Assembly (NCBI GenBank): GCA_963749655.1
Contig: CAVVOB010000012.1
Span: 64,001-128,000 of the forward strand
DNA from: Nitrospirota bacterium
GTDB taxonomy: Bacteria; Nitrospirota; UBA9217
Direction: 5' to 3'
DNA: 64,000 bases
The notes below the pieces were generated by a model that saw nothing but the letters and a program-made list of their open reading frames with translations, did not search any database and was not told the origin of the DNA. This document shows positions 4,439 to 60,675 of this stretch, in pieces; the first letter of the stretch is position 1; each line of letters begins with the position of its first letter. The position numbers and the translations under genes were made by a program.

Positions 4439-6157
4439 ATGCAAAAAATCTCCCCTCAAAAGTCCCTCGTGAACGTGCTGGGCGTGGTGTACCTTCACAC
4501 CAAGACCGAGGACGGCGGTGATCTGTACCTCACGCGTCATGCCCAATCCCACCAGGAGCACCTCAATATCCAGAACTGGTATGAAGAGGAATGGTTTGCC
4601 GCGCACCGTGTCAGACTGCTCGGAACCAGCTCCGTGTACCGTGTGTCAACGAAACCGGTCAAGAACGTGAGTCTCGACCTCGTGGTCAAGAACTGCCGCG
4701 TGGGAGAGGACGTCCCGATCAACACCCACACGCTCGAGGAGTTCGTCAGCGCCGAGTTCAACAGCCCCTGGGAGGAGTTCGCCCTGGTCATGGAGATGGA
4801 CGATCGTCAGGTCGGCCAGCGGATCGGGTGGATCAGGGTTCAGCGGCCCCTCGCCATTTACGTCCCGCCCCAGACCATGCAGCTCTGGCAGAGCGGCCGG
4901 TCCCGGTCCCGCATCAACCGCATCCGCGCGCGCCATCCCGGCATCGACCTCGACATCCTCAAGCAATACAAGCTCGTCTACGAGTGGATCCGGGGAAAGA
5001 ACCTGATCGAGATCTTCGAAGGGATCAAACTCGAGTTTCCCGACATCGTGGAACACCTCAAGATCATGCAGAAGATGGCCTTCGATGACCTGAGCACAAA
5101 AGGGTACCACATGGCGGACATGAAGCCCGAGCACGTCATCATCGATGAGGCTGACTGCGAGCGCATCGAGCTTGCCGGAAAAGGCGGGAATGCCGAAGCG
5201 ACAAACAGGCAGGTGGACCTCGTCTACCAGCTGCTCCGGGGCGGGAACTATTCGGTCATCGATTACGAGCTGCTCTTTCGCACGCCCGAACACGAAGACC
5301 GGGTCAAGGCATCGAGGCGGCACTCGTACCTGGACGACATGCGGGACCGCTTTACGCCGACGCCGCTTCCGTCGCATCTTGCGCGCACGGAGATCTTCGG
5401 CGTTCCCTATATCTTCGGCCATGCAGAGAGCACCGGCGGCCGCATGTGGGTCGTGGGCAGGAACGGGCGCCTGTTCGATTATTTTCTGCCCGAGCGCTGG
5501 CGAAAGACGCCGAGCCTGAGCCTGTCGGACACCAATGAGGTATACTACACGGTCACGAAGGACAACATCCATCTCGTCTGGAAGGCGTCTCGTGTGGGAG
5601 AGATTCCCGCTGTCAAAAAATACAATGCCGAGGAGATCGAGAAGATCAGGCACTACGGCATCAACAGTCCCTTCGAGGAGTTCGCCGTATCCCAGGCGCT
5701 GAACGAACAGGGCATCCATTCCGTCTATGTCCGCGCCATCTATATGACGGGCAGCCTGAAGATCGAGATCTCGTCGGACCCCCGGAAGTACCAGTCCCAC
5801 AAGCAAATCGTCGATACCGACGGCAATCCCGTGCTGGCGGTGGAGCACAATTACATCACGATCCGCGGCTTCTACAACGGACCTGATGCCTGGGTGTCTC
5901 AGCGCGAAGAGACATCGCTGCTCACGCCCGTCGACCTGGCAAAGGCAGTGCGCAAGAAGATCATCGATGAACGAACCTGCACAGCATATCTGGAGCGCGT
6001 CAGGGACCGGCTGCTCACCGCGGGATATGACGGTTCGCTGCTCAAGGCCAATGATCTTCTGCTCGCCCTCGATTCCCATGGCCAGATCATGAAGGACAAA
6101 TCGGGCGAGCCGGACATCATCATCTGCAACTTCGAGATCATCTGGAAGATCTTTTAG
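4439..6157 (+). CDS. Hypothetical protein with two tandem protein-kinase-like folds (kinase plus apparent pseudokinase)
   Basis: Internal duplication LVVKNCRVGE..NSPWEEF / LVWKASRVGE..NSPFEEF; N-half has HMADMKPEH and IDYE. Confidence 0.65.
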   Translation: MQKISPQKSLVNVLGVVYLHTKTEDGGDLYLTRHAQSHQEHLNIQNWYEEEWFAAHRVRLLGTSSVYRVSTKPVKNVSLDLVVKNCRVGEDVPINTHTLEEFVSAEFNSPWEEFALVMEMDDRQVGQRIGWIRVQRPLAIYVPPQTMQLWQSGRSRSRINRIRARHPGIDLDILKQYKLVYEWIRGKNLIEIFEGIKLEFPDIVEHLKIMQKMAFDDLSTKGYHMADMKPEHVIIDEADCERIELAGKGGNAEATNRQVDLVYQLLRGGNYSVIDYELLFRTPEHEDRVKASRRHSYLDDMRDRFTPTPLPSHLARTEIFGVPYIFGHAESTGGRMWVVGRNGRLFDYFLPERWRKTPSLSLSDTNEVYYTVTKDNIHLVWKASRVGEIPAVKKYNAEEIEKIRHYGINSPFEEFAVSQALNEQGIHSVYVRAIYMTGSLKIEISSDPRKYQSHKQIVDTDGNPVLAVEHNYITIRGFYNGPDAWVSQREETSLLTPVDLAKAVRKKIIDERTCTAYLERVRDRLLTAGYDGSLLKANDLLLALDSHGQIMKDKSGEPDIIICNFEIIWKIF

Positions 6158-6452
6158 GATCCTTGGTTGTCATCACCGCGCTGTCAGTATTCTCCGACGG
6201 TTTTCCGATCTCGCTCATACTTTAGCCTCAACAATCGTCCGCCCTCTTCTTCGATCTCAATCAGCCCTGTGCTATGATTTAAGCATCAGTGAACCTCTGT
6301 CAGCATCATCTCCGAGCGGCTGCCAGGCGCTTTTGTAAAGAAACCAACGGCACTCCGCGGCCGCCGGGTACGCATCCCGACCCACATGCGACAGCAATTG
6401 CTGCTGCAGAACAAGAGGACAAAAAGAATACGATGAAGGAGAGGAGGCTGCC

Positions 6453-7568
6453 ATGAAGACCACCGTGAGCGTGATCAAAGCTGATATCGGTTCCGTCGGA
6501 GGTCATATCTGTCCCTCGGAAAAGCTGCTTGAAACCGTGAAGAAGCATGTGACGGAAAAGGGCCGGGATATTCTGATCGACAACTATGTGAGTTTCACCG
6601 GTGACGACATTGCGATCCTCATGACCCACCGGTCCGGCGAGGGAAATGAGCAGGTCCACAAACTTGCCTGGGACGCTTTTGTTGCCGGGACTGCCGTTGC
6701 GAAATCACAGGGCCTCTACGGCGCTGGCCAGGACCTCTTGAAGGACGCTTTCTCCGGGAATGTCCACGGCATGGGCCCCGCTGTCGCGGAAATGGAATTC
6801 GACGAGCGGCCCGGGGAACCTTTCCTGTTTTTCGCTGCGGACAAGACCGACCCAGGCGCGTACAACTTCCCGCTTTATCTCGCGTTCACCGACGCCATGA
6901 ATACGCCCGGCCTTATGCTTTCTCCAAAAATGGCCCAGGGCTTCAGCTTCACGATCATGGACGTGAACCATACGGAAGGCGATCGCGTCGTCGAGCTCTC
7001 CGCTCCCGAAGACCTCTACGATATCGCTACGCTGCTCCGCGACCCTGAGCGGTATGTGGTCGAGTCCGTGTGGTCGCGCGCGGCGGGCACACAGGCTGCG
7101 GCAGTGGCAACGTCGCGGCTTCACAACATCGCGGGAAAATACACGGGCAAGGACGATCCCGTGATGCTGGTCAGGAGCCAGATGGATTTTCCTGCAACAG
7201 GCGAGATCCTCCAGCCCTTCTCCGTCGGCCACTTCGTGGCGGGTTGCATGCGGGGTTCGCACAACATGCCGATCATGCCCGTGAAGCTCAATACGACCAT
7301 CAGCTGGTTCGACGGTCCGCCCGTAGTCAGCTGCGCGGCCTTCTCGCTTCGCGACGGAAAGCTGACCGGACCGGTGGACGCCTTCGACCATCCGTTCTGG
7401 GACCGGGTGCGCGCGCACGTTGCCGACAAGGCAATGGACATGCGGAGGCAGGGTTTCTTCGGCGCCGCCATGCTGCCGATGAACGAGCTGGAGTACACGG
7501 GGATCATGGAAAAGCTTGCCGCGATCGAGAAGAAGTTTGCGGTGCGGGCGATGAAAAAAGCCGCATAG
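6453..7568 (+). CDS. fbp: Bifunctional fructose-1,6-bisphosphate aldolase/phosphatase (class V FBPase)
   Basis: SVIKADIGS, GDDI, LYGAGQDLLKDAFSGN, ADKTDPGAYN, IAGKYTGKDDP, MRGSH. Confidence 0.95.
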   Translation: MKTTVSVIKADIGSVGGHICPSEKLLETVKKHVTEKGRDILIDNYVSFTGDDIAILMTHRSGEGNEQVHKLAWDAFVAGTAVAKSQGLYGAGQDLLKDAFSGNVHGMGPAVAEMEFDERPGEPFLFFAADKTDPGAYNFPLYLAFTDAMNTPGLMLSPKMAQGFSFTIMDVNHTEGDRVVELSAPEDLYDIATLLRDPERYVVESVWSRAAGTQAAAVATSRLHNIAGKYTGKDDPVMLVRSQMDFPATGEILQPFSVGHFVAGCMRGSHNMPIMPVKLNTTISWFDGPPVVSCAAFSLRDGKLTGPVDAFDHPFWDRVRAHVADKAMDMRRQGFFGAAMLPMNELEYTGIMEKLAAIEKKFAVRAMKKAA

Positions 7569-53002: not shown

Positions 53003-53326
53003 TTACCGTACGTTGATTACACAGTTTTTTGTGCCGAATGGGTTAGGGGTTGTTTCAGCGTTCGAAAGGTCCTGGACCCATGAACCGTCTACCAGATACT
53101 TATATTCATATCTTCCCTGAGGCAGCTTCATTTTGATTTTCCATGCTCCGTCCTTGCCTTTTTTCATGGACATGGACTTGGGATCCCAATCGTTGAATTG
53201 ACCTGCCAGGCAAACCTTTTTTGCAGCGGGAGCGACGATCGAGAATTCTATCTCCTGCGTGCTGGCGGCGAAACGTGACTTGGTGATTGTTTCTCCCAGT
53301 TGTTTTATCGTTTCCATCGTGGACAT
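53003..53326 (-). CDS. Glycogen-binding domain protein (CBM48/AMPK-beta-like)
   Basis: VCLAGQFNDW, GAW, GRYEYKYLVDG.W..D, NPFG..N. Confidence 0.9.
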   Translation of the reverse strand: MSTMETIKQLGETITKSRFAASTQEIEFSIVAPAAKKVCLAGQFNDWDPKSMSMKKGKDGAWKIKMKLPQGRYEYKYLVDGSWVQDLSNAETTPNPFGTKNCVINVR

Positions 53327-53565
53327 AGTTCCTCCTCTGAGTACAAGCTTAAGTAAGGGCCCTTATTTCCATGCACGATTCGGTTTATTCTCAAAATGAC
53401 ATATATATATTGATTCACTCATTTTCCGGCCGGCTGGTCCGGAAACTCCGAGGCGTGGCAATAAGGAAGGCAGCGCCAAGCCAGAGAGCGACACAAGATT
53501 TCGGCAGGAGAGAATCCTCCTGCCGAATTTTTAATGCCGGGGGAGTTTATCCTGTACTTGAATAA

Positions 53566-54132
53566 TTACGGGGCCGCCGGCTTCCATCCCTCGTCGGTCG
53601 AGTAGGGCAGCGCCTTGCCGTCGAAAATGATGCGAATGCGGCGCTCGCCATGCGAGCCCTTGGTCTCCTGGACGATTATGTCGAAGTCGATAGCCGACAT
53701 GATCATGTCGCCAAACCGCTCATTCATCCAGCGCTGGATTGCCGGCCCATACACCTCTACCGCCTCGTGCATGCGATAAATAGCGCCGGTTTGCCAGCGT
53801 ACCGGGGGAGGGGCCAGGGGGGCCAGCGAGCCGGCTTTCAAGTCAAGTTCCTTTTCGAGGCATTCCTGAGTACTTTTCTCTAAAGGAGCCTGGCCGGTGA
53901 GGATCGCTCCGATCCGGACAGGCAGGAGCTTGCAGGCACTGCCCAGGGCTTCCAGGGTCAGGCCTTTTTTGATAGCCGCCTTATTGGCCAGATCCAATGT
54001 CGGCTTGCGCTGCTCGTAACTGTCGAGTGCAAGCGAATCTACTACGCTGGTCCGGTCAGTAGCTTGTGCCGGCGAAATCCAGCAAAGTCCTGCAACGATA
54101 ACTGCCGATACTTTCAGTAACGTCTTGTTCAT
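53566..54132 (-). CDS. cynS: Cyanase (cyanate hydratase) homolog with N-terminal Sec signal peptide
   Basis: IYRMHEAVEVYG (Arg/Glu), FGDMIMSAIDF (Ser), FDGKALPY; leader MNKTLLKVSAVIVAGLCWISPAQA. Confidence 0.85.
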   Translation of the reverse strand: MNKTLLKVSAVIVAGLCWISPAQATDRTSVVDSLALDSYEQRKPTLDLANKAAIKKGLTLEALGSACKLLPVRIGAILTGQAPLEKSTQECLEKELDLKAGSLAPLAPPPVRWQTGAIYRMHEAVEVYGPAIQRWMNERFGDMIMSAIDFDIIVQETKGSHGERRIRIIFDGKALPYSTDEGWKPAAP

Positions 54133-54269
54133 AACCCCTCCTTAGTATTGTAATGAGCATCATTTATAATAACGTGTCATTTACAGAGCGCTGTGATCAC
54201 CACCTCCTCTCTGTCTGGAATGCCCATCGGAAAATAACAGCCGACTGATGCTGTTTTCCGCCGGCTTTT

Positions 54270-55928
54270 TTAATATTTCGTAAATTCGCGATCGTAGCGT
54301 TCAGCCTTGCCTTTGCCGTCATGCCCCCCATTGACGGCCGCGGCCGAACGAATAACCGGCGCCGCAAGCTTCGGTTTGGAGAAAGGCACGATATTGCTTT
54401 TCTGCGGAGCCTGAGCTGCCCCGTCGCTTACCTTGAAGAATGCTACCGTGCTCTGAAGCTGCCCGGCCTGCGAAGCCAGTTCCTCGGCAGTGGACGACAT
54501 CTCCTCGGCGGCCCCCGCGTTCTGCTGGATCACGTGATTGAGTTGCTGTATGGAAGCGTTTATCTGGCCGGCCCCGGAGGCCTGCTCCTTGCTCGCGGCG
54601 CTGATCTCCTGCACCAGCTCGGCGGTCTTCTGGATGTCCGGCACGAGCTTTGAGAGCAGCTGGCCGGCACGCTCGGCGACGTCCAGGCTTGACGCCGAGA
54701 GCTTGCTTATTTCGGAGGCTGCTGTCTGGCTCCGTTCCGCGAGCTTCCGGACTTCTGAAGCGACCACCGCGAAGCCCTTGCCGTGCTCGCCCGCCCGGGC
54801 CGCTTCGATGGCGGCGTTCAGCGCAAGCAGGTTTGTCTGCCGGGCGATCTCCCCGATGATCGAGATCCGAGTGGCGATGTCCTTCATGGCGTCTACCGCC
54901 TCGGTTACCGCCTTTCCGCTCTCCTGCGCGTCAGCCGCCGATTTCAGGGCGATCTTCTCGGTCTGTGAGGCGTTGTCCGCATTCTGCCTGATAGTGGCGT
55001 TCATCTCCTCTATGGAGGACGATGCTTCCTCGGCCGACGCCGCCTGCTCGGTAGTGCCCTGGGACATCTGCTCCGTGCCTCCGCTGAGCTGCTTGCTTCC
55101 CGAAGCCACGTTGTCCGCCGCGTTCTTGACGTCGACGACGACCTGGCGAAGCTTCTCGGCCATTGTTTTCATGGCGGAGTAGATGCCCGTTTCATTTTTC
55201 CCATTCGCCTCGAACTCTACGGTCAGGTCTCCGTCGGAGATCTTCCAGGCGATCGCCGCTATATGCGCGGGCTCCCCTCCGATCGGCACGATTATCGAGC
55301 GGCTGATCATGATCCCCCCGACGATGACGGAGGCCCCCAGCAGCAGCGTCAAAAGGAGGATCCAGACTACGGCATTTCTCTTTGCAGCGGTCGACCGCTC
55401 GACGGCCTGGTTCATGCTCGCCTGATGGAACAACCCGATTTCATGAAGAGCTCCCAGCATCCTGTCATAGGAGTCCCTCCCCTGCGTCGTCAGGATCTTA
55501 AGGGACTCTTCTTTTGCAAAGGCGCTGCTCAACCTCAGGACTTCCGTCTTGAGCATGCCGAAGGAGGCCCACTCGTTCTTGAACGTCGCCATGTGCCCCG
55601 CAACCGCCGAGGCCCCGCTCTTGCGGGTCATTTCTTCATAATCCGCTATTTCCTTGCCGAGCTTATCCGTCATATCGTTGATGCTCTGTTCCACCTTCTT
55701 GAGCCCATCGGGGTCGGTCATGGCGGAATGTATGATCAGATACCGCAGAACTTCCGAAAGGGTCTTCTCGATCTCATCGACCTTGACCAGGGGAATGGCT
55801 TCGGCTTTCACGATCGACAGCGAGATGTTTGCAACGCTGTTCGTGAAAAAAAAGCCTATCCCGCCCGCGAAAAGCAGGCAGGCTATCGATATCACGGCAT
55901 TCAACAGCAATTTGGATTTTATTTTCAT
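54270..55928 (-). CDS. Methyl-accepting chemotaxis protein (TM - periplasmic four-helix-bundle-like sensor - TM - HAMP - signalling domain)
   Basis: [40 protein letters not shown]; two TMs; C-terminal EFTKY pentapeptide-like tail. Confidence 0.95.
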
Positions 55929-56082
55929 AATGGAGAATCCTTTCATGACAGCTCTTGATTGCTCCACAGCCCCGAAGCGAAGACCTCTGGCCCGGGAAAC
56001 ATTCGTCTTCAGATTGCGCAGTGTAAAGCCCGTGAGTCAGGTCAGGTTTGCTGCCCGAATCTGCGGCGTTTGAGCAGGCGCC

Positions 56083-57087
56083 TCAGCTCTTGCTGAAGCT
56101 CGCATCCACGAAAGTCTTCAGGTCTGTTTTCTGGATCAAACCGGCGGACACCGACATGTCGTGGATCGTCTGGTAATCCGCAAGTTTGGGCGCGAGGTCG
56201 CTGTATATAATGCGGTTCGAGGGGTGCTGCATTACATTCACGATTACGCGTTCGTCTATCTGCACGTACTTCCGCGCAAGGGTTGCGACTTCCTTCGAAC
56301 CTTTATCCTTGTCCTCATCGATGAACTTGCCGCTCCTCTGGATGCTATGCACCCATTCCCGGATCCCTTCCGGGTTGGACGATAATTGCTGTTTATGTAC
56401 GACCGCGACGCAGCAAATGTGGTTGGGGAGTATGTCTTTGGAAAGCTTCAGTATCCGTCCGGTTCCCGCCTGTACCGCCCTCTCACCTGCAGGCTCAGGA
56501 CCGAGATAAGCGTCGATGCTGCCGCTCTTGAGCGAATCGGGCATATTCGGGGGCGGGACCGGCATGATGTTCACGTCTTTCAGGGACAGCCCCGCGGTTT
56601 TGAGATATTTATCGAGAATGACCGCATGGGTGGATACCCGGTAGGGAACCGCCACGGTCTTTCCCTTGAGGTCTGCCGCCGATTTTATCGAAGAGTCCGC
56701 TCTGATGGTCAGGCCGGATCCGTGCCGGTGGCCTATTGCGACCGTCCTGATATCCATGCCGTTGTTGAACAGATCCATTGCAAAGTTCGACAGGATCATG
56801 GCCCCGCCGACCACGTTCGCCTTGAGCGCGCCGGCAAGTGCGTCCCACGATTTGAACTGCATCGGCTCGATATCGATGTTCTTGAATGAGCCATTGTCCC
56901 GTGCATGGGACATCAGCATGGCAAAATGATCGAGAATCGGGATATAGGCGATCTTCATGGTGGTTTTTGAAACGGCTATTGAAGGAAATCCAAGGGAGCT
57001 CAGGCCGAGAGCGGCGCAGCCGACCGCGGTCGTTTTCAGGAATTGACGGCGGCCCATTTTTTTGGAAGATCTTTTCTCGTTTCCCAT
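56083..57087 (-). CDS. Tat-exported ABC-type substrate-binding protein, NrtA/CmpA/CynA-like (NMT1_2)
   Basis: GRRQFLK twin-arginine leader, IAYIPILDH, FKSW..L, HRHGS, VP...STH, PPP.M, PEP, HICC. Confidence 0.85.
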   Translation of the reverse strand: MGNEKRSSKKMGRRQFLKTTAVGCAALGLSSLGFPSIAVSKTTMKIAYIPILDHFAMLMSHARDNGSFKNIDIEPMQFKSWDALAGALKANVVGGAMILSNFAMDLFNNGMDIRTVAIGHRHGSGLTIRADSSIKSAADLKGKTVAVPYRVSTHAVILDKYLKTAGLSLKDVNIMPVPPPNMPDSLKSGSIDAYLGPEPAGERAVQAGTGRILKLSKDILPNHICCVAVVHKQQLSSNPEGIREWVHSIQRSGKFIDEDKDKGSKEVATLARKYVQIDERVIVNVMQHPSNRIIYSDLAPKLADYQTIHDMSVSAGLIQKTDLKTFVDASFSKS

Positions 57088-57512
57088 TTTGTGTGTCTCC
57101 TTTTTGTTGAATTACTTCAACTCTGACGAATTGAAGTTGTTTCTTTTTCTTTAGTCCTACTCACGGCCAGGCAATATGATCATTTATTGATGCTCATGTT
57201 CTTGAACAAGTAAACCCTCTTCTTGTCCGCCCGCAGCAGACTGCGGGGATTGAACTCACTCCGGAATTCATTTACGAAAACTCCCTCGCCGTTCTGTGCC
57301 GTGAGGCAGCAAGACATGCAGAACGCAATAAAAACGCAGATTTGCCGCACTGTTCAGTAAGTATTATGTACGTGACAGGATTTACTCGCCAAAAACTACA
57401 GCGAGGACAGGATGGACAGATACGTAATCAAATCAAAAGTATTGTCGCGGACAGCAGTCTTCGGAAGTGGTTATCGGAATAAATTCTGCTATCTGGTTAT
57501 GGCGTTGATAAA

Positions 57513-57882: not shown

Positions 57883-58028
57883 TCGCAGACGTTGCTCCCC
57901 GAGGACGGGAACCCCGTCGGGAACGTCCCTGGCGACGTGGTCGCCCCGCGCCATTCCCGAATGAACGTCGTCACCGCGTCCATCGACCGCATCGATTTCC
58001 ACCATCCCATTTTCGTCGGCGACCTTCT
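57883..58028 (+). pseudogene. Relic of the acyl-CoA thioesterase gene
   Basis: High nucleotide similarity to ~60208..60386 with an internal deletion; encodes RMNVVTASIDRIDFHHPIFVGDL. Confidence 0.85.
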
Positions 58029-58250: not shown

Positions 58251-60053
58251 ATGGTCGGCCCTGTACGAGACAATCCGATGAATAAAGAAGTAATAGACGT
58301 AGTCGTCGATCTCGCTGAGGTGCTCGCGCGTAAACACCTGACCATTTTCTGCGGGGCAGGCATCTCGCGCAATTCAGGAGTCCCGCCTGTTAAGCCGCTC
58401 CTGGCCCATCTTCTCGGGAAATTAAGCATTCCCGAATCCATCCATCGTAAGTTTTGGGATATTCCCTTTGAGATGGTTATGCAAACACTAATAGAACACA
58501 GCAGAGGCGTGGAAGACGGCATTTTCGACATTTACGGTTTGGGCCGGCCAAATACGAGCCATCTCTTTCTCGCCGCATTAATGCATTCGGACAAAGTGCG
58601 GACGATTGTTACTACGAATTTCGATCATCTGATAGAGCATGCGCTACACGTAGATCCCCCGGCCATGGTCACGTCTTCCAGGGGCCCAACTCCGGGGGGG
58701 CTCGATATGGCGGAATATCGGTTACTCTATCGGGATGATCATTTTGAAGCTTGCCGGCTCGATGACGGTCAAAAAAGGCTGGTCAAGATTCACGGAAGTT
58801 ATCAAGACAAAGCGAGCATGATCATCACGATCAAGCAAATCGCACAACGGGACCTGTCCGCAAACCGGCGCAACCTCGTCAAACGGGTGTTTGCAAACAC
58901 GATGGCCGAGGAGCATGCCGTGCTCGTCCTGGGATATAGTTGTTCCGACTTGTTCGACATCAATGAGTGTATCGCATCGGTGACGGGAGACAAAAAGAGA
59001 ATCTACTTTGTTCAATACTCTACGACCGAGGAACGCGTGGAGGACATCAGTATCCTCAAAGACAAAAATCCTTTCTCGCACTATCCGGGGAAACGGATCT
59101 ATTGCGACACGGACGCGTTTATCGAAGAACTTTGGAAAAAAGCCGTTCTCCTTCCGTATCGAAGGGTTTGCTGCGCCGGGGATGAGCATTGGAAAACCAT
59201 GATCGATCGTTGGGCCGGTTGGAACTCGGACTACAATAAGGATGATATCCTCGGCAAACTCTACTTTGACGTCCGTGAATATCAAAGGTCGATTCAGCAT
59301 TACCAGGCAGTGCTTACGTCCTGCCGGCTGAAGAATGACCGGTTGAACGTTGCGGAATGTCTTCACAACATCGGCCTGGCGTACCATGGTAACGAAGACA
59401 GCAGTACCGCCATCGAGTATTACGAGCAGGCGCTTCGGGCGGCAAAACAACACAGGGACAAAGAATTGGCCATGGTGCTATACGGCAGTTTGGCCGCAGC
59501 AGGGATGAAATTGTATTTTCTGGGTGACAAGGAGTGCGAGCGGTCGCTTCGCTACTACAAAAAGGCTTTGCGCACGGCTAAACGACTCAAGGACAAACGC
59601 CATGAAGGGCATTGGCGCAACGGCATCGCCTCCGTCTATATGCACAGGAAGTTGGACTCGCTGGCAATTTCACACTTGCAACGGGCCTTGGACATTGCCC
59701 GTGAGCTGGGAGATAAAAGGAGCGAGTGCAGTCGGCTCGTTAGTATGGGCACGTTACATTATCATTTGGGCAACTATGAAGAGGCCATCGGCTTTTACGA
59801 ACAAGCGCTCTATATAGCAAAGGGCTTGGGGGATATTCCCACCGAAGTACAACTTCTAGACGACATCGAAAGATCAAACAAGATGAAGGATGCGCCGGAC
59901 AGATTCGAAAAATCCATGCAGCGCATGGGGATAGAAATCCTCGATGAGTCGCAGATTAGTGTCAGCGATGCCTTCTGGTCGCAGATCATCGGCTTCATCG
60001 GTGTCATCATCACCTTTTTTATCGTGTGGATGCTTCTTCAGCGCTTCTGTTGA
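58251..60053 (+). CDS. SIR2-like (SIR2_2) domain plus TPR repeats and C-terminal TM helix; start may be 58278
   Basis: FCGAGIS..SGVP, TTNFD.LIE, KIHGS, LGYSCSD; TPRs such as LHNIGLAY..AIEYYEQAL; terminal IIGFIGVIITFFIVWMLL. Confidence 0.85.
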   Translation: MVGPVRDNPMNKEVIDVVVDLAEVLARKHLTIFCGAGISRNSGVPPVKPLLAHLLGKLSIPESIHRKFWDIPFEMVMQTLIEHSRGVEDGIFDIYGLGRPNTSHLFLAALMHSDKVRTIVTTNFDHLIEHALHVDPPAMVTSSRGPTPGGLDMAEYRLLYRDDHFEACRLDDGQKRLVKIHGSYQDKASMIITIKQIAQRDLSANRRNLVKRVFANTMAEEHAVLVLGYSCSDLFDINECIASVTGDKKRIYFVQYSTTEERVEDISILKDKNPFSHYPGKRIYCDTDAFIEELWKKAVLLPYRRVCCAGDEHWKTMIDRWAGWNSDYNKDDILGKLYFDVREYQRSIQHYQAVLTSCRLKNDRLNVAECLHNIGLAYHGNEDSSTAIEYYEQALRAAKQHRDKELAMVLYGSLAAAGMKLYFLGDKECERSLRYYKKALRTAKRLKDKRHEGHWRNGIASVYMHRKLDSLAISHLQRALDIARELGDKRSECSRLVSMGTLHYHLGNYEEAIGFYEQALYIAKGLGDIPTEVQLLDDIERSNKMKDAPDRFEKSMQRMGIEILDESQISVSDAFWSQIIGFIGVIITFFIVWMLLQRFC

Positions 60054-60168: not shown

Positions 60169-60675
60169 ATGGAAGGCAAACGAGTAGCGGACAGCAGCGT
60201 TATCACAGCGCAGATGATGATCCCCCAGGACGCGAATCCCGCAGGCAACGTCCACGGCGGTGTGGTCGTGAAGATCATCGACGAGGCGGCCGGCGTGGTC
60301 GCCGCGCGCCATTCCCGCATGAACGTCGTCACCGCGTCCATCGACCGCATCGATTTTCACCATCCTATTTTCGTCGGCGATCTTCTCTTCTTCAAGGCAA
60401 GTCTGAATTCCGTGGGCAGGACGTCCATGGAGATCGGCGTGCGCGTGGAGGCGGAGAACCTGCGGACCGGCGACGTGCAGCACGCAGCCTCTGCGTATCT
60501 CACCTATGTGGCCATCGACCAGCAGGGCAAGCCCGTGCCCGTGCCGCCGCTTGTCCTCGAGACCGATGAGGAGCGGCGCAGGAACAACGACGCGCTCTCG
60601 CGCAGGGCCATGCGGCTGGCCGAGCGGAACAGGCAGGCGCAGTGCAAGCAGGACCCGGGGGCGTGTTCACAGTGA
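60169..60675 (+). CDS. Acyl-CoA thioesterase (hotdog fold, YciA-like)
   Basis: PQDANPAGNVHGG, IDEAAG, VVTASID, GRTSME.GV.V. Confidence 0.93.
   Translation: MEGKRVADSSVITAQMMIPQDANPAGNVHGGVVVKIIDEAAGVVAARHSRMNVVTASIDRIDFHHPIFVGDLLFFKASLNSVGRTSMEIGVRVEAENLRTGDVQHAASAYLTYVAIDQQGKPVPVPPLVLETDEERRRNNDALSRRAMRLAERNRQAQCKQDPGACSQ

Follow-up and report, generated by a model that had tools for sequence, protein, structure and literature searches.

In a 64,000-nucleotide stretch of contig CAVVOB010000012.1 (positions 64,001 to 128,000; assembly GCA_963749655.1, Nitrospirota bacterium), hereafter the window, three consecutive minus-strand genes encode a substrate-binding protein (SBP), a transmembrane methyl-accepting chemotaxis protein (MCP) and a cyanase with a signal peptide. 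Comparative data and structural modelling make a partnership between the SBP and the MCP very likely, and the sequence of the cyanase makes it likely that this enzyme is exported and active. Joined to a sensed ligand that is linked to the enzyme, these two readings give the best explanation of the whole that we can offer, a sensor built from SBP and MCP next to a periplasmic cyanase, for which we consider the chances to be even. According to this explanation, the trio would be an accessory cassette of a dsrAB-bearing Nitrospirota bacterium. The Tat-exported SBP would act as a dedicated sensory co-receptor with no part in transport, closing on a small ligand in a cleft lined by His, Arg and Cys residues and probably holding a metal. 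Both of its lobes would dock across the membrane-distal tip of the MCP four-helix-bundle dimer, as proposed for maltose-binding protein (MBP) on Tar, and the MCP would relay the signal to a Che pathway, probably driving type IV pili or another non-flagellar output. The Sec-exported cyanase, with a probable Cys67-Cys91 disulfide, would convert periplasmic cyanate and bicarbonate to ammonia and CO2, so that the cell could use or detoxify cyanate while having neither an importer nor a cytoplasmic cyanase. The most fully specified version, in which an SBP with a Cys/His metal site senses cyanate or bicarbonate, docks on the MCP tip and steers a non-flagellated sulfur-cycling cell to cyanate that the disulfide-stabilised periplasmic enzyme degrades, is unlikely to hold in every part. 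A preliminary description of the locus, which had proposed a periplasmic module for sensing and degrading cyanate, is partly supported by the analysis.

A three-gene block in differing surroundings

The three co-directional genes of the preliminary description are all present: the SBP gene at 56083..57087 (334 aa; Pfam NMT1_2, 2.2e-35), the MCP gene at 54270..55928 (552 aa from ATG 55928; Pfam 4HB_MCP_1 7.5e-17, MCPsignal 2e-35) and the cyanase gene at 53566..54132 (188 aa; PF02560 Cyanate_lyase 1.2e-21, 76.7 bits against a cut-off of 25). The MCP reading frame is open from a GTG at 55967, and the likely start is ATG 55928, as used by the relative in locus L004. The open reading frame (ORF) list and Pfam revealed no ABC permease or ATPase gene between 46.7 and 62.4 kb of the window, in agreement with the earlier statement that none lies beside the SBP.

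Compared by blastn with its three nearest genome loci (L002, L003 and L004), the window shows homology from ~57225 to ~53489 at 85-89% identity, extending to about 57389 in L002, and the flanks outside these limits are unrelated in all three. The conserved segment (53489..57225, ~3.65-3.7 kb) holds the SBP, MCP and cyanase genes and a terminator. A metagenome scan added further copies (L126, L130, and L127, which equals L129 and is identical to L003). Any two copies have only ~3.65 kb in common, at 84-96% nucleotide identity, and L126, L127/L129 and L130 keep to these limits when compared with one another. The trio stays together in all six complete copies (the window, L002, L003/L127/L129, L004, L126 and L130), as the neighbourhood comparison suggested in the preliminary description now shows; a seventh, partial copy (L128) breaks off within the MCP gene. 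Such recurrence as a single block, in six complete copies whose flanks differ, exceeds chance. Because the cassette limits are sharp and constant, we argue from the sequence comparison that the trio is maintained and transferred as a unit. In L002 the MCP gene is split into two overlapping ORFs (5418-6864), which is a frameshift or an assembly error.

The cassette components are patchily distributed. The exported cyanase occurs in 4 of the 64 genomes of the family, across 3 genera, and in its place a canonical cyanase-like match (35-46% identity) was found in three more genomes of the genus to which the window belongs. Of 401 genomes sampled from the phylum, 3 contain a close SBP orthologue; among 14 genomes of this genus, none does. 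No direct or inverted repeats of at least 9 nt are common to both cassette ends in the window, L002, L004 or L126; at the ends of L129 and L130 only chance-like matches of 10-11 nt were seen, and this repeat search of the cassette ends gave no mobile-element signature. At 3.65 kb, the cassette is compact and should move easily to a heterologous host, where coupled sensing and extracellular degradation could be tested.

The binding protein and the chemoreceptor

The receptor had been described as a transmembrane chemoreceptor, and its architecture bears this out: hydropathy predicts two transmembrane (TM) helices (TM1, residues 6-28; TM2, residues 186-208) around a periplasmic domain of ~157 aa, with the four-helix-bundle sensor of the 4HB_MCP_1 family at residues 30-185 (55374..55841, minus strand) and an MCPsignal domain. 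The SBP begins with a predicted Tat signal region (56971..57087, minus strand, about residues 1-39), whose motif GRRQFLK is read from the translation and which is recognised by Pfam (TAT_signal, 1.2e-4) and NCBIfam (TAT_signal_seq, TIGR01409, 26.5 bits against a cut-off of 16.7). Judged by sequence, an exported SBP would thus stand beside an MCP whose periplasmic ligand-binding domain (LBD) lies between two TM helices, the layout of the MBP-Tar type.

The pairing is conserved across lineages, with the output module exchanged. SBP homologues fall into a cassette group (75-92% identity) and a wider group (43-65%) from Deltaproteobacteria, Desulfococcaceae, Thioploca and Ca. Venteria, and 22 of the 55 genomes in the order of the Thiomargarita genome G402 carry an orthologue at 39-50% identity. 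Orthologous SBPs directly upstream of receptors with the same sensor are 38-56% identical overall. At 14 of 19 examined loci of the Thiomargarita order, a 4HB_MCP_1 receptor with an N-terminus homologous to that of the window MCP follows directly downstream on the same strand; five of these have MCP outputs (L098, L103, L105, L108, L112) and nine have histidine-kinase outputs, mostly hybrid (L094, L095, L097, L100, L101, L104, L106, L107, L109). A dCache kinase takes the place of the 4HB receptor in L111, and L096, L099, L102 and L110 have no such receptor downstream of the SBP. Metagenomes yielded 42 SBP orthologues, and the sensor domain lies downstream in 30 of the 35 that could be evaluated (within 600 nt in 27). 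A 4HB sensor was found downstream of none of the SBPs under ~40% identity (L168-L181). SBP matches at E<=1e-50 were present in 3 of 401 genomes in the phylum of the 'delta proteobacterium' G401, at 35-37% identity.

The window's own genome (4.27 Mb and 86.6% complete, the completeness to which all statements on it refer) holds five NMT1_2 SBP genes, four of which, including that of the window, lie directly upstream of membrane sensors; none of the five has an ABC permease beside it. A CynB-type permease, searched for by tblastn with a query from L025, gave no match at E<=1e-6 in this assembly. Together with the SBP-sensor adjacency in distant lineages, these results uphold the earlier view of the SBP as an orphan partner of the MCP and argue against an ordinary transport SBP that serves an ABC importer encoded elsewhere, with or without a signalling role. 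That an incomplete assembly could lack the permease, and that MBP-type SBPs serve both transport and taxis according to the consulted part of a review (PMC8050422), speaks for such a transport function, which we nevertheless regard as very improbable. Two further arrangements of NMT1_2 SBP and sensor genes were noted in this genome (C14:37011-41265 and C14:160323-166489; loci L122 and L123). One comprises a CheB/CheR-PAS kinase, then an SBP, then a HAMP-PAS-GAF-HisKA kinase; the other has two tandem SBPs followed by a 4HB-HAMP-HisKA protein and a sigma-54 response regulator.

Modelling of the complex, which had been named as a check on the partnership, points in the same direction. Two LBD copies (residues 30-185) and one mature SBP (residues 40-334) were predicted to dock with a score of 0.67, compared with 0.00 for the best of three controls. 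The 0.67 mark is reached by 116 of 157 solved complexes and by 2 of 215 mismatched pairs, a calibration that holds only roughly here because custom alignments and three chains were used. The model runs have at least 91% of contacts in common, with a partner pLDDT of at least 93. In the predicted geometry, the two SBP lobes each touch a different LBD copy at its membrane-distal tip. Both LBD copies contribute residues 71-73 and 132-141/144, among them the invariant K139 and the nearly invariant D141, next to the invariant S134; the SBP contributes residues 76-92 from one lobe and 175-191 from the second, among them the invariant F78 and P179.

Many 4HB chemoreceptors bind ligands directly. The four-helix bundle of this MCP might do the same, the upstream SBP being functionally unrelated, and the gap of ~155 nt between the SBP stop and the MCP start at ATG 55928 is consistent with such independence. 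However, the pairing persists across lineages while output modules change, and the most conserved motif of the LBD tip falls on the predicted SBP interface, so that we see only a slim chance for direct binding. We know of no solved complex of an NMT1_2 SBP with a 4HB_MCP_1 domain against which the preferred SBP-MCP docking could be set.

SBP-stimulated chemoreceptors covered in the consulted part of the review include MBP-Tar and PstS-CtpL, and the geometry proposed there for MBP on Tar places one lobe on each receptor subunit at the membrane-distal tip (PMC8050422). Our model is alike in predicting a periplasmic SBP on the four-helix-bundle domain of a two-TM MCP dimer, with a lobe for each LBD copy. 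Unlike the SBPs of MBP-Tar and PstS-CtpL, the window SBP is of the NMT1_2 family, and the term NMT1 is absent from the consulted part of that review. Differences from MBP-Tar extend further: no cognate ABC transporter lies near the window SBP or was detected in the 86.6% complete genome, so the MBP feature of also serving an ABC importer has no counterpart in this assembly, and the gene of this type of SBP is fixed directly upstream of the receptor gene, the pair being reused with histidine-kinase outputs. Dedicated sensor SBPs are listed in the same part of the review for the two-component systems TorT-TorS, LuxP-LuxQ and AioX-AioS (PMC8050422). With these the window pair would have in common an SBP gene adjoining the receptor gene and no transport role, and nine of the orthologous pairs have kinase outputs; it differs from them in SBP family, in the 4HB_MCP_1 sensor, in the predicted docking geometry, and in having an MCP output and a travelling enzyme gene. 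If this reading is correct, the pair is a new sensory module, in which an SBP from a family outside the listed SBP-receptor systems is reused together with a 4HB sensor and either MCP or kinase outputs, and the SBP-4HB pairs constitute many natural chimeras for ligand finding.

A probably exported cyanase clade

The signal peptide claimed for the cyanase is supported by its N-terminus, MNKTLLKVSAVIVAGLCWISPAQA followed by TD, which has a Sec-type n/h/c layout (residues 1-24, predicted to end AQA before TD; 54061..54132, minus strand). A strong AAGGAGG ribosome site lies directly ahead of the first ATG. The predicted catalytic residues Arg120, Glu123 and Ser146 (codons within 53695..53775, minus strand) fall on the IYR..E and SAI motifs when aligned to solved cyanases; these residues, which we take to be R96/E99/S122 in E. 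coli numbering, are invariant in a 20-sequence alignment of the clade. PDB cyanases match down to 1.6e-15 over residues 42-177, and in phmmer alignments residues 42-116 pair with the N-terminal portion of the solved enzymes.

Homologues number 151 at E<=0.001, with identities of 62-100% among the 120 matches listed. They come from Nitrospirota, Pseudomonadota, Nostoc and Methanothrix, to which genome loci add Massilia, Thiomargarita, Fortiea, Brocadiaceae and others. In a library clustered at 50% identity the clade is one representative at E<=1e-30, the next full-length matches reaching at most 44% identity, and in the ESM Atlas a single cluster matches ('putative cyanase', 97 members). Identity to canonical cyanases is ~33-36%. 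In a quick maximum-likelihood tree built from 35 signal-bearing sequences, 12 signal-less ones and 35 canonical cyanases, a branch of 2.26 changes per column (SH-aLRT 99) stands between the clade and the canonical group, and the signal-less forms are nested at two places inside the exported clade. About 108 of the 120 members listed have a signal peptide: 102 pass a test for a hydrophobic N-terminus, 4 are clear by eye and 2 are truncated within the signal, leaving 12 without. The pair C67/C91 is intact in 102 of the 102 members that pass the signal test, and only forms without a signal have lost the second Cys (5 of the 12). Because this loss is restricted to signal-less forms, a periplasmic disulfide fits the data, and residues Cys67 and Cys91 are probably so joined. 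Export itself is very probable on these grounds, and the clade appears to be tight, exported and undescribed. One further protein, P0195 (372 aa), shows two stretches of 37% identity to the cyanase query and may be a tandem or fused cyanase.

The comparison with CynS (EC 4.2.1.104; cynTSX of E. coli and cynABD-cynS of cyanobacteria and Nitrospira) shows likeness in the C-terminal cyanate lyase domain with its catalytic Arg/Glu/Ser, and the exported cyanase gene of Nitrospiraceae loci is embedded in the cynABD-cynS cluster. The exported clade differs in its predicted Sec signal, its conserved Cys pair, a shortened loop ahead of the catalytic Arg and NCBIfam scores below the cut-offs; where CynS is stated in the literature to be cytoplasmic, the window cyanase has a predicted signal peptide. 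Some of these differences can be turned against the preferred reading of an active periplasmic enzyme. The protein scores under both NCBIfam cyanase models (TIGR00673, 66.5 against 113.3; NF002773, 83.1 against 150), Pfam does not report CYNS_N (PF21291) in it but does so for the canonical neighbouring copy in L025, the loop leading to the catalytic Arg lacks ~7 residues relative to solved cyanases such as 4Y42, the branch to canonical cyanases is long, and a place beside canonical cynS in six loci suggests a non-redundant role. It might then be no periplasmic cyanase, its N-terminus being a membrane anchor or untranslated, or its substrate another compound. Yet the catalytic residues are invariant, residues 42-177 align to the whole of solved cyanases, a strong ribosome site precedes the first ATG, the hydrophobic segment ends in an AxA-type motif followed by a conserved mature N-terminus in the aligned signal-bearing members, Cys loss tracks signal-peptide loss, and the nitrogen-assimilation context (cynABD, cynS, amt) fits cyanate metabolism. 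With all of this considered, we hold it to be quite improbable that the protein is something other than an exported cyanase.

That context emerged from 25 genome loci of the exported-cyanase clade. In 6 of the 25 (L013, L015, L018, L019, L025, L026), the gene immediately upstream of the exported cyanase is a canonical cynS, and amt follows the exported cyanase in 6 (L012, L023 and L025 by Pfam; L013, L020 and L026 by clustering). The Nitrospiraceae loci with cynS or amt lie inside a nitrogen cluster of glnB-glnD-glnA, a sigma-54 activator and SBP-permease-ATPase (cynABD) genes. The order, read across L025 (1-13514), L026, L012 and L020, runs through glnB, glnD, glnA, the sigma-54 activator, a cynA-like SBP, permease, ATPase and canonical cynS to the exported cyanase and two amt genes, and then to Rieske, cytochrome b and multihaem genes. 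In Nostoc, Massilia, Thiomargarita and Brocadiaceae, the neighbours of the exported cyanase are unrelated to nitrogen metabolism, and 15 of the 25 loci have no SBP near it. A different NMT1_2 subfamily, CynA-like, stands beside the exported cyanase in L007, L012, L018, L025 and L026; no permease was seen in the L007 or L012 locus. L007 (4017-7097), from a gammaproteobacterial metagenome-assembled genome, places a Phosphonate-bd SBP and a 461-aa CynA-like NMT1_2 SBP directly upstream of the exported cyanase, and with no ABC permease or ATPase detected in its 14-kb locus it represents a second case of orphan SBP and exported cyanase.

In the window's own genome, the only PF02560 match is the window cyanase. 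There being no second cyanase, periplasmic hydrolysis would be the only cyanase route seen in the 86.6% complete assembly. Published accounts take a different view of where cyanases work: in the consulted parts of a 2025 comparison of Nitrospirales, cyanases are stated to be cytoplasmic, two cyanase types are noted, and cyanate use is modelled as import followed by cytoplasmic hydrolysis (PMC12342949), and a 2025 report of two cynS clades leaves export unmentioned in the part consulted (PMC12625717). A literature search for periplasmic, extracellular, secreted or exported cyanase, or for periplasmic cyanate, found no report, although the supplements of these two papers might show the clade. 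The consulted part of PMC7078480 contains nothing relevant on cyanase with a signal peptide and the periplasm, and the sole literature match for 'cyanase-like' proteins concerns yeasts. If export and activity hold, a conserved cyanase clade across several phyla (Nitrospiraceae, Nostoc, Thiomargarita, Brocadiaceae, Massilia) adds a periplasmic route of cyanate hydrolysis, one that would often be used and that contradicts the working assumption of cytoplasmic cyanases needing a cyanate importer. Ammonia would then be released outside the cytoplasm, which bears on nitrogen scavenging, detoxification and cross-feeding between nitrifiers and would alter the interpretation of cyanate use and ammonia release in nitrite oxidisers.

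Ligand, transcription and signalling output

The SBP had been described as a Tat-exported, NrtA/CmpA/CynA-like protein. The Tat signal and the NMT1_2 family stand, and the likeness to NrtA and CmpA gives way to closer solved relatives. The best match is 3UN6, a zinc-bound S. aureus SBP of unknown function, both in sequence (phmmer 5e-21; profile search of the PDB 1.5e-40) and in fold (Foldseek rank 1, TM 0.79/0.90, from an AF2 model with a mean pLDDT of 89.8 and values <50 at residues 1-9 and 23-37). It is followed in order by SsuA (NCBIfam SsuA_fam, 127.7 bits, under the cut-off of 163.5), the regulatory domains of CmpC/NrtC, and NrtA and CmpA, which are distant (profile 4.8e-10 and 7.9e-12). 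In NrtA, the anion is balanced by the basic pair H196 and K269 (PMC8786288, consulted in part). Residues were mapped from NrtA to the SBP through the CmpC/NrtC regulatory-domain alignment, in which H154 of the SBP is the equivalent of H196 and Cys226, invariant in 24 sequences, takes the position of the charge-balancing Lys269; the basic pair is thus absent. Besides this Cys for K269, the SBP differs from the NrtA/CmpA/CynA group in its length (334 aa against 417-429 in the solved chains) and in having no NitT/TauT-type permease or ATPase with it; the fold family and the His are kept.

Cys226 belongs to an invariant H223-x-x-C226 motif and is preceded by Cys225. The SBP sequence NHICC aligns with DAYCC of 3UN6, with the Cys-Cys (CC) motif in the cleft. 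A metal site made up of 2 Cys and 1-2 His has been proposed for the 3UN6-like SBPs that clade B CODH operons encode (PMC13592312, consulted in part; see PMC6344411), and for SaoX a CC motif in the cleft has been proposed to bind metal (bioRxiv 10.1101/2022.07.06.499078, consulted in part). The window SBP resembles this group in its best match and in a CC motif at the same cleft position; their genes, however, go with ABC permease and ATPase genes, whereas the window SBP goes with a chemoreceptor. Since the CC motif is present in 3UN6 and in two other SBPs of the window's genome, it is not diagnostic for cyanate. At position 225, Cys is found in the window SBP and in cynS-linked SBPs, and Glu or Asp in the orthologues of the Thiomargarita order: the site reads H-P-C-C in ABC-type SBPs beside cynS at Nitrospiraceae loci and in the L007 SBP beside the exported cyanase, and H-V-E/D-C in the Thiomargarita order. 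Because this position differs, the specificity of the SBP may differ between groups. The cynS genes of two Nostoc genomes have no cynABD neighbours and hence no adjacent CynA to compare.

One shared transcript for the three genes, as had been assumed, is doubtful. The 137-nt gap from the MCP stop to the cyanase start contains an AT-rich stretch and, just past the MCP stop, a hairpin with a T-run (54228..54260, minus strand) that may attenuate or terminate transcription before the cyanase; the cyanase may therefore be transcribed separately. In the window this hairpin is weak, at -12.7 kcal/mol (z -1.8); the L004 version, with UUUUU, is stronger, at -20.6 kcal/mol (z -2.8). It was found in 4 of 4 aligned cassette copies. 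The cassette is closed by a strong, bidirectional terminator-like hairpin with a 12-bp stem (53500..53527; -27.4 kcal/mol, z -4.9), which is kept in L002 and L003. It alone stands out among the terminator-like sites between 52.5 and 58.3 kb (9, with 6.7 expected). In the same region, sigma-70-like sites number 3, with 3.9 expected by chance. A sigma-54 promoter was considered and dropped: the sole match near the cassette (57528-57513) has 2 mismatches and lies outside the conserved block, and the 14 matches in the window fall short of the 28.5 expected by chance.

The module had been called chemotactic. The genome has four CheA-like matches and nine further loci that match the MCP signalling domain. 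Neither flagellin nor FlhA was found in the 86.6% complete assembly, and four PilT genes score above the cut-off. With flagellar genes missing from the assembly and PilT present, 'chemotaxis' by this MCP may mean control of pili or another Che-type output. DsrA also scores above its cut-off. The sole ammonium transporter match in this genome (C26:40593-41711) looks fragmented, being broken into four pieces in different frames with one internal TGA, and may be a pseudogene, a sequencing error or a recoding event.

The identity of the ligand has to be judged against all of these results. Because the three genes are inherited and transferred together, it would most likely be one of the two substrates of the enzyme, cyanate or bicarbonate, a tentative assignment from linkage to which we give somewhat less than even chances. 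The claim that the SBP presents one of these anions fared poorly at the binding site itself, given the Cys at the Lys269 position and the resemblance to zinc-site SBPs. Several observations weigh against this ligand and against the explanation of which it is a part. Candidate cleft residues are near-invariant between the window SBP and the orthologues of the Thiomargarita order, where 22 of 55 genomes have the SBP and 1 of 55 has the exported cyanase, that of G402, on a contig other than that of the SBP (2 of 55 have weak canonical-like matches). Among the non-cassette metagenome SBP loci, 0 of 38 have a cyanase. As most genomes with the SBP-sensor pair lack the enzyme, a cyanate or bicarbonate ligand, co-expression of the cyanase and gradient shaping are all weakened. 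The six cassette copies, all from one family-level clade, are not independent of one another, and the want of flagellin and FlhA, the fragmented amt and the doubtful co-transcription stand on the same side.

Alternatively, the SBP and MCP might sense something unrelated to cyanate, for instance a metal such as Zn, Ni or Cu or a different small anion bound at the Cys/His site, the separately transcribed cyanase being merely co-carried. Zinc-bound 3UN6 as top match in structure and sequence, the H223-x-C225-C226 motif at the cleft position, the metal sites proposed for related CC-motif SBPs, the hairpin and T-run between MCP and cyanase, and the rarity of the enzyme alongside the SBP all fit, and Tat export would suit a protein that folds with its cofactor before export. 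On the other hand, the trio stays together in all six complete copies with homology stopping precisely around it, a second NMT1_2 subfamily adjoins the exported cyanase in other lineages, and position 225 sets the window and cynS-linked SBPs apart from those of the Thiomargarita order. We rate the sensing of something unrelated to cyanate, with a co-carried enzyme, as unlikely, yet as deserving serious attention. Within the preferred explanation of a sensor next to a periplasmic cyanase, shaping of the gradient or clearing of the ligand by the enzyme is speculative, and the resetting of the gradient by ligand clearing, as first proposed, is pure inference.

Some features of the neighbourhood deserve mention. 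Just beyond the cassette terminator, at 53003-53326, lies a gene for a stand-alone CBM48/AMPK1_CBM glycogen-binding-type protein (107 aa) with three paralogous matches elsewhere in the genome. On the other side of the cassette, a 96-nt piece of a 4HBT thioesterase gene (60169-60675) is duplicated at 94% identity (57933-58028 and 60291-60386), and downstream of the duplicated piece is a SIR2_2-TPR gene (58251-60053, 600 aa). The duplication therefore places the SIR2_2-TPR gene between a truncated and a full thioesterase copy, which looks like the insertion of a defence-like gene directly beside the cassette. Further along, the segment 61000-61499 has 38% GC, against 50-60% around it, and the AT-rich stretch, which continues to 62400 with small membrane-protein-like ORFs, may be foreign DNA.

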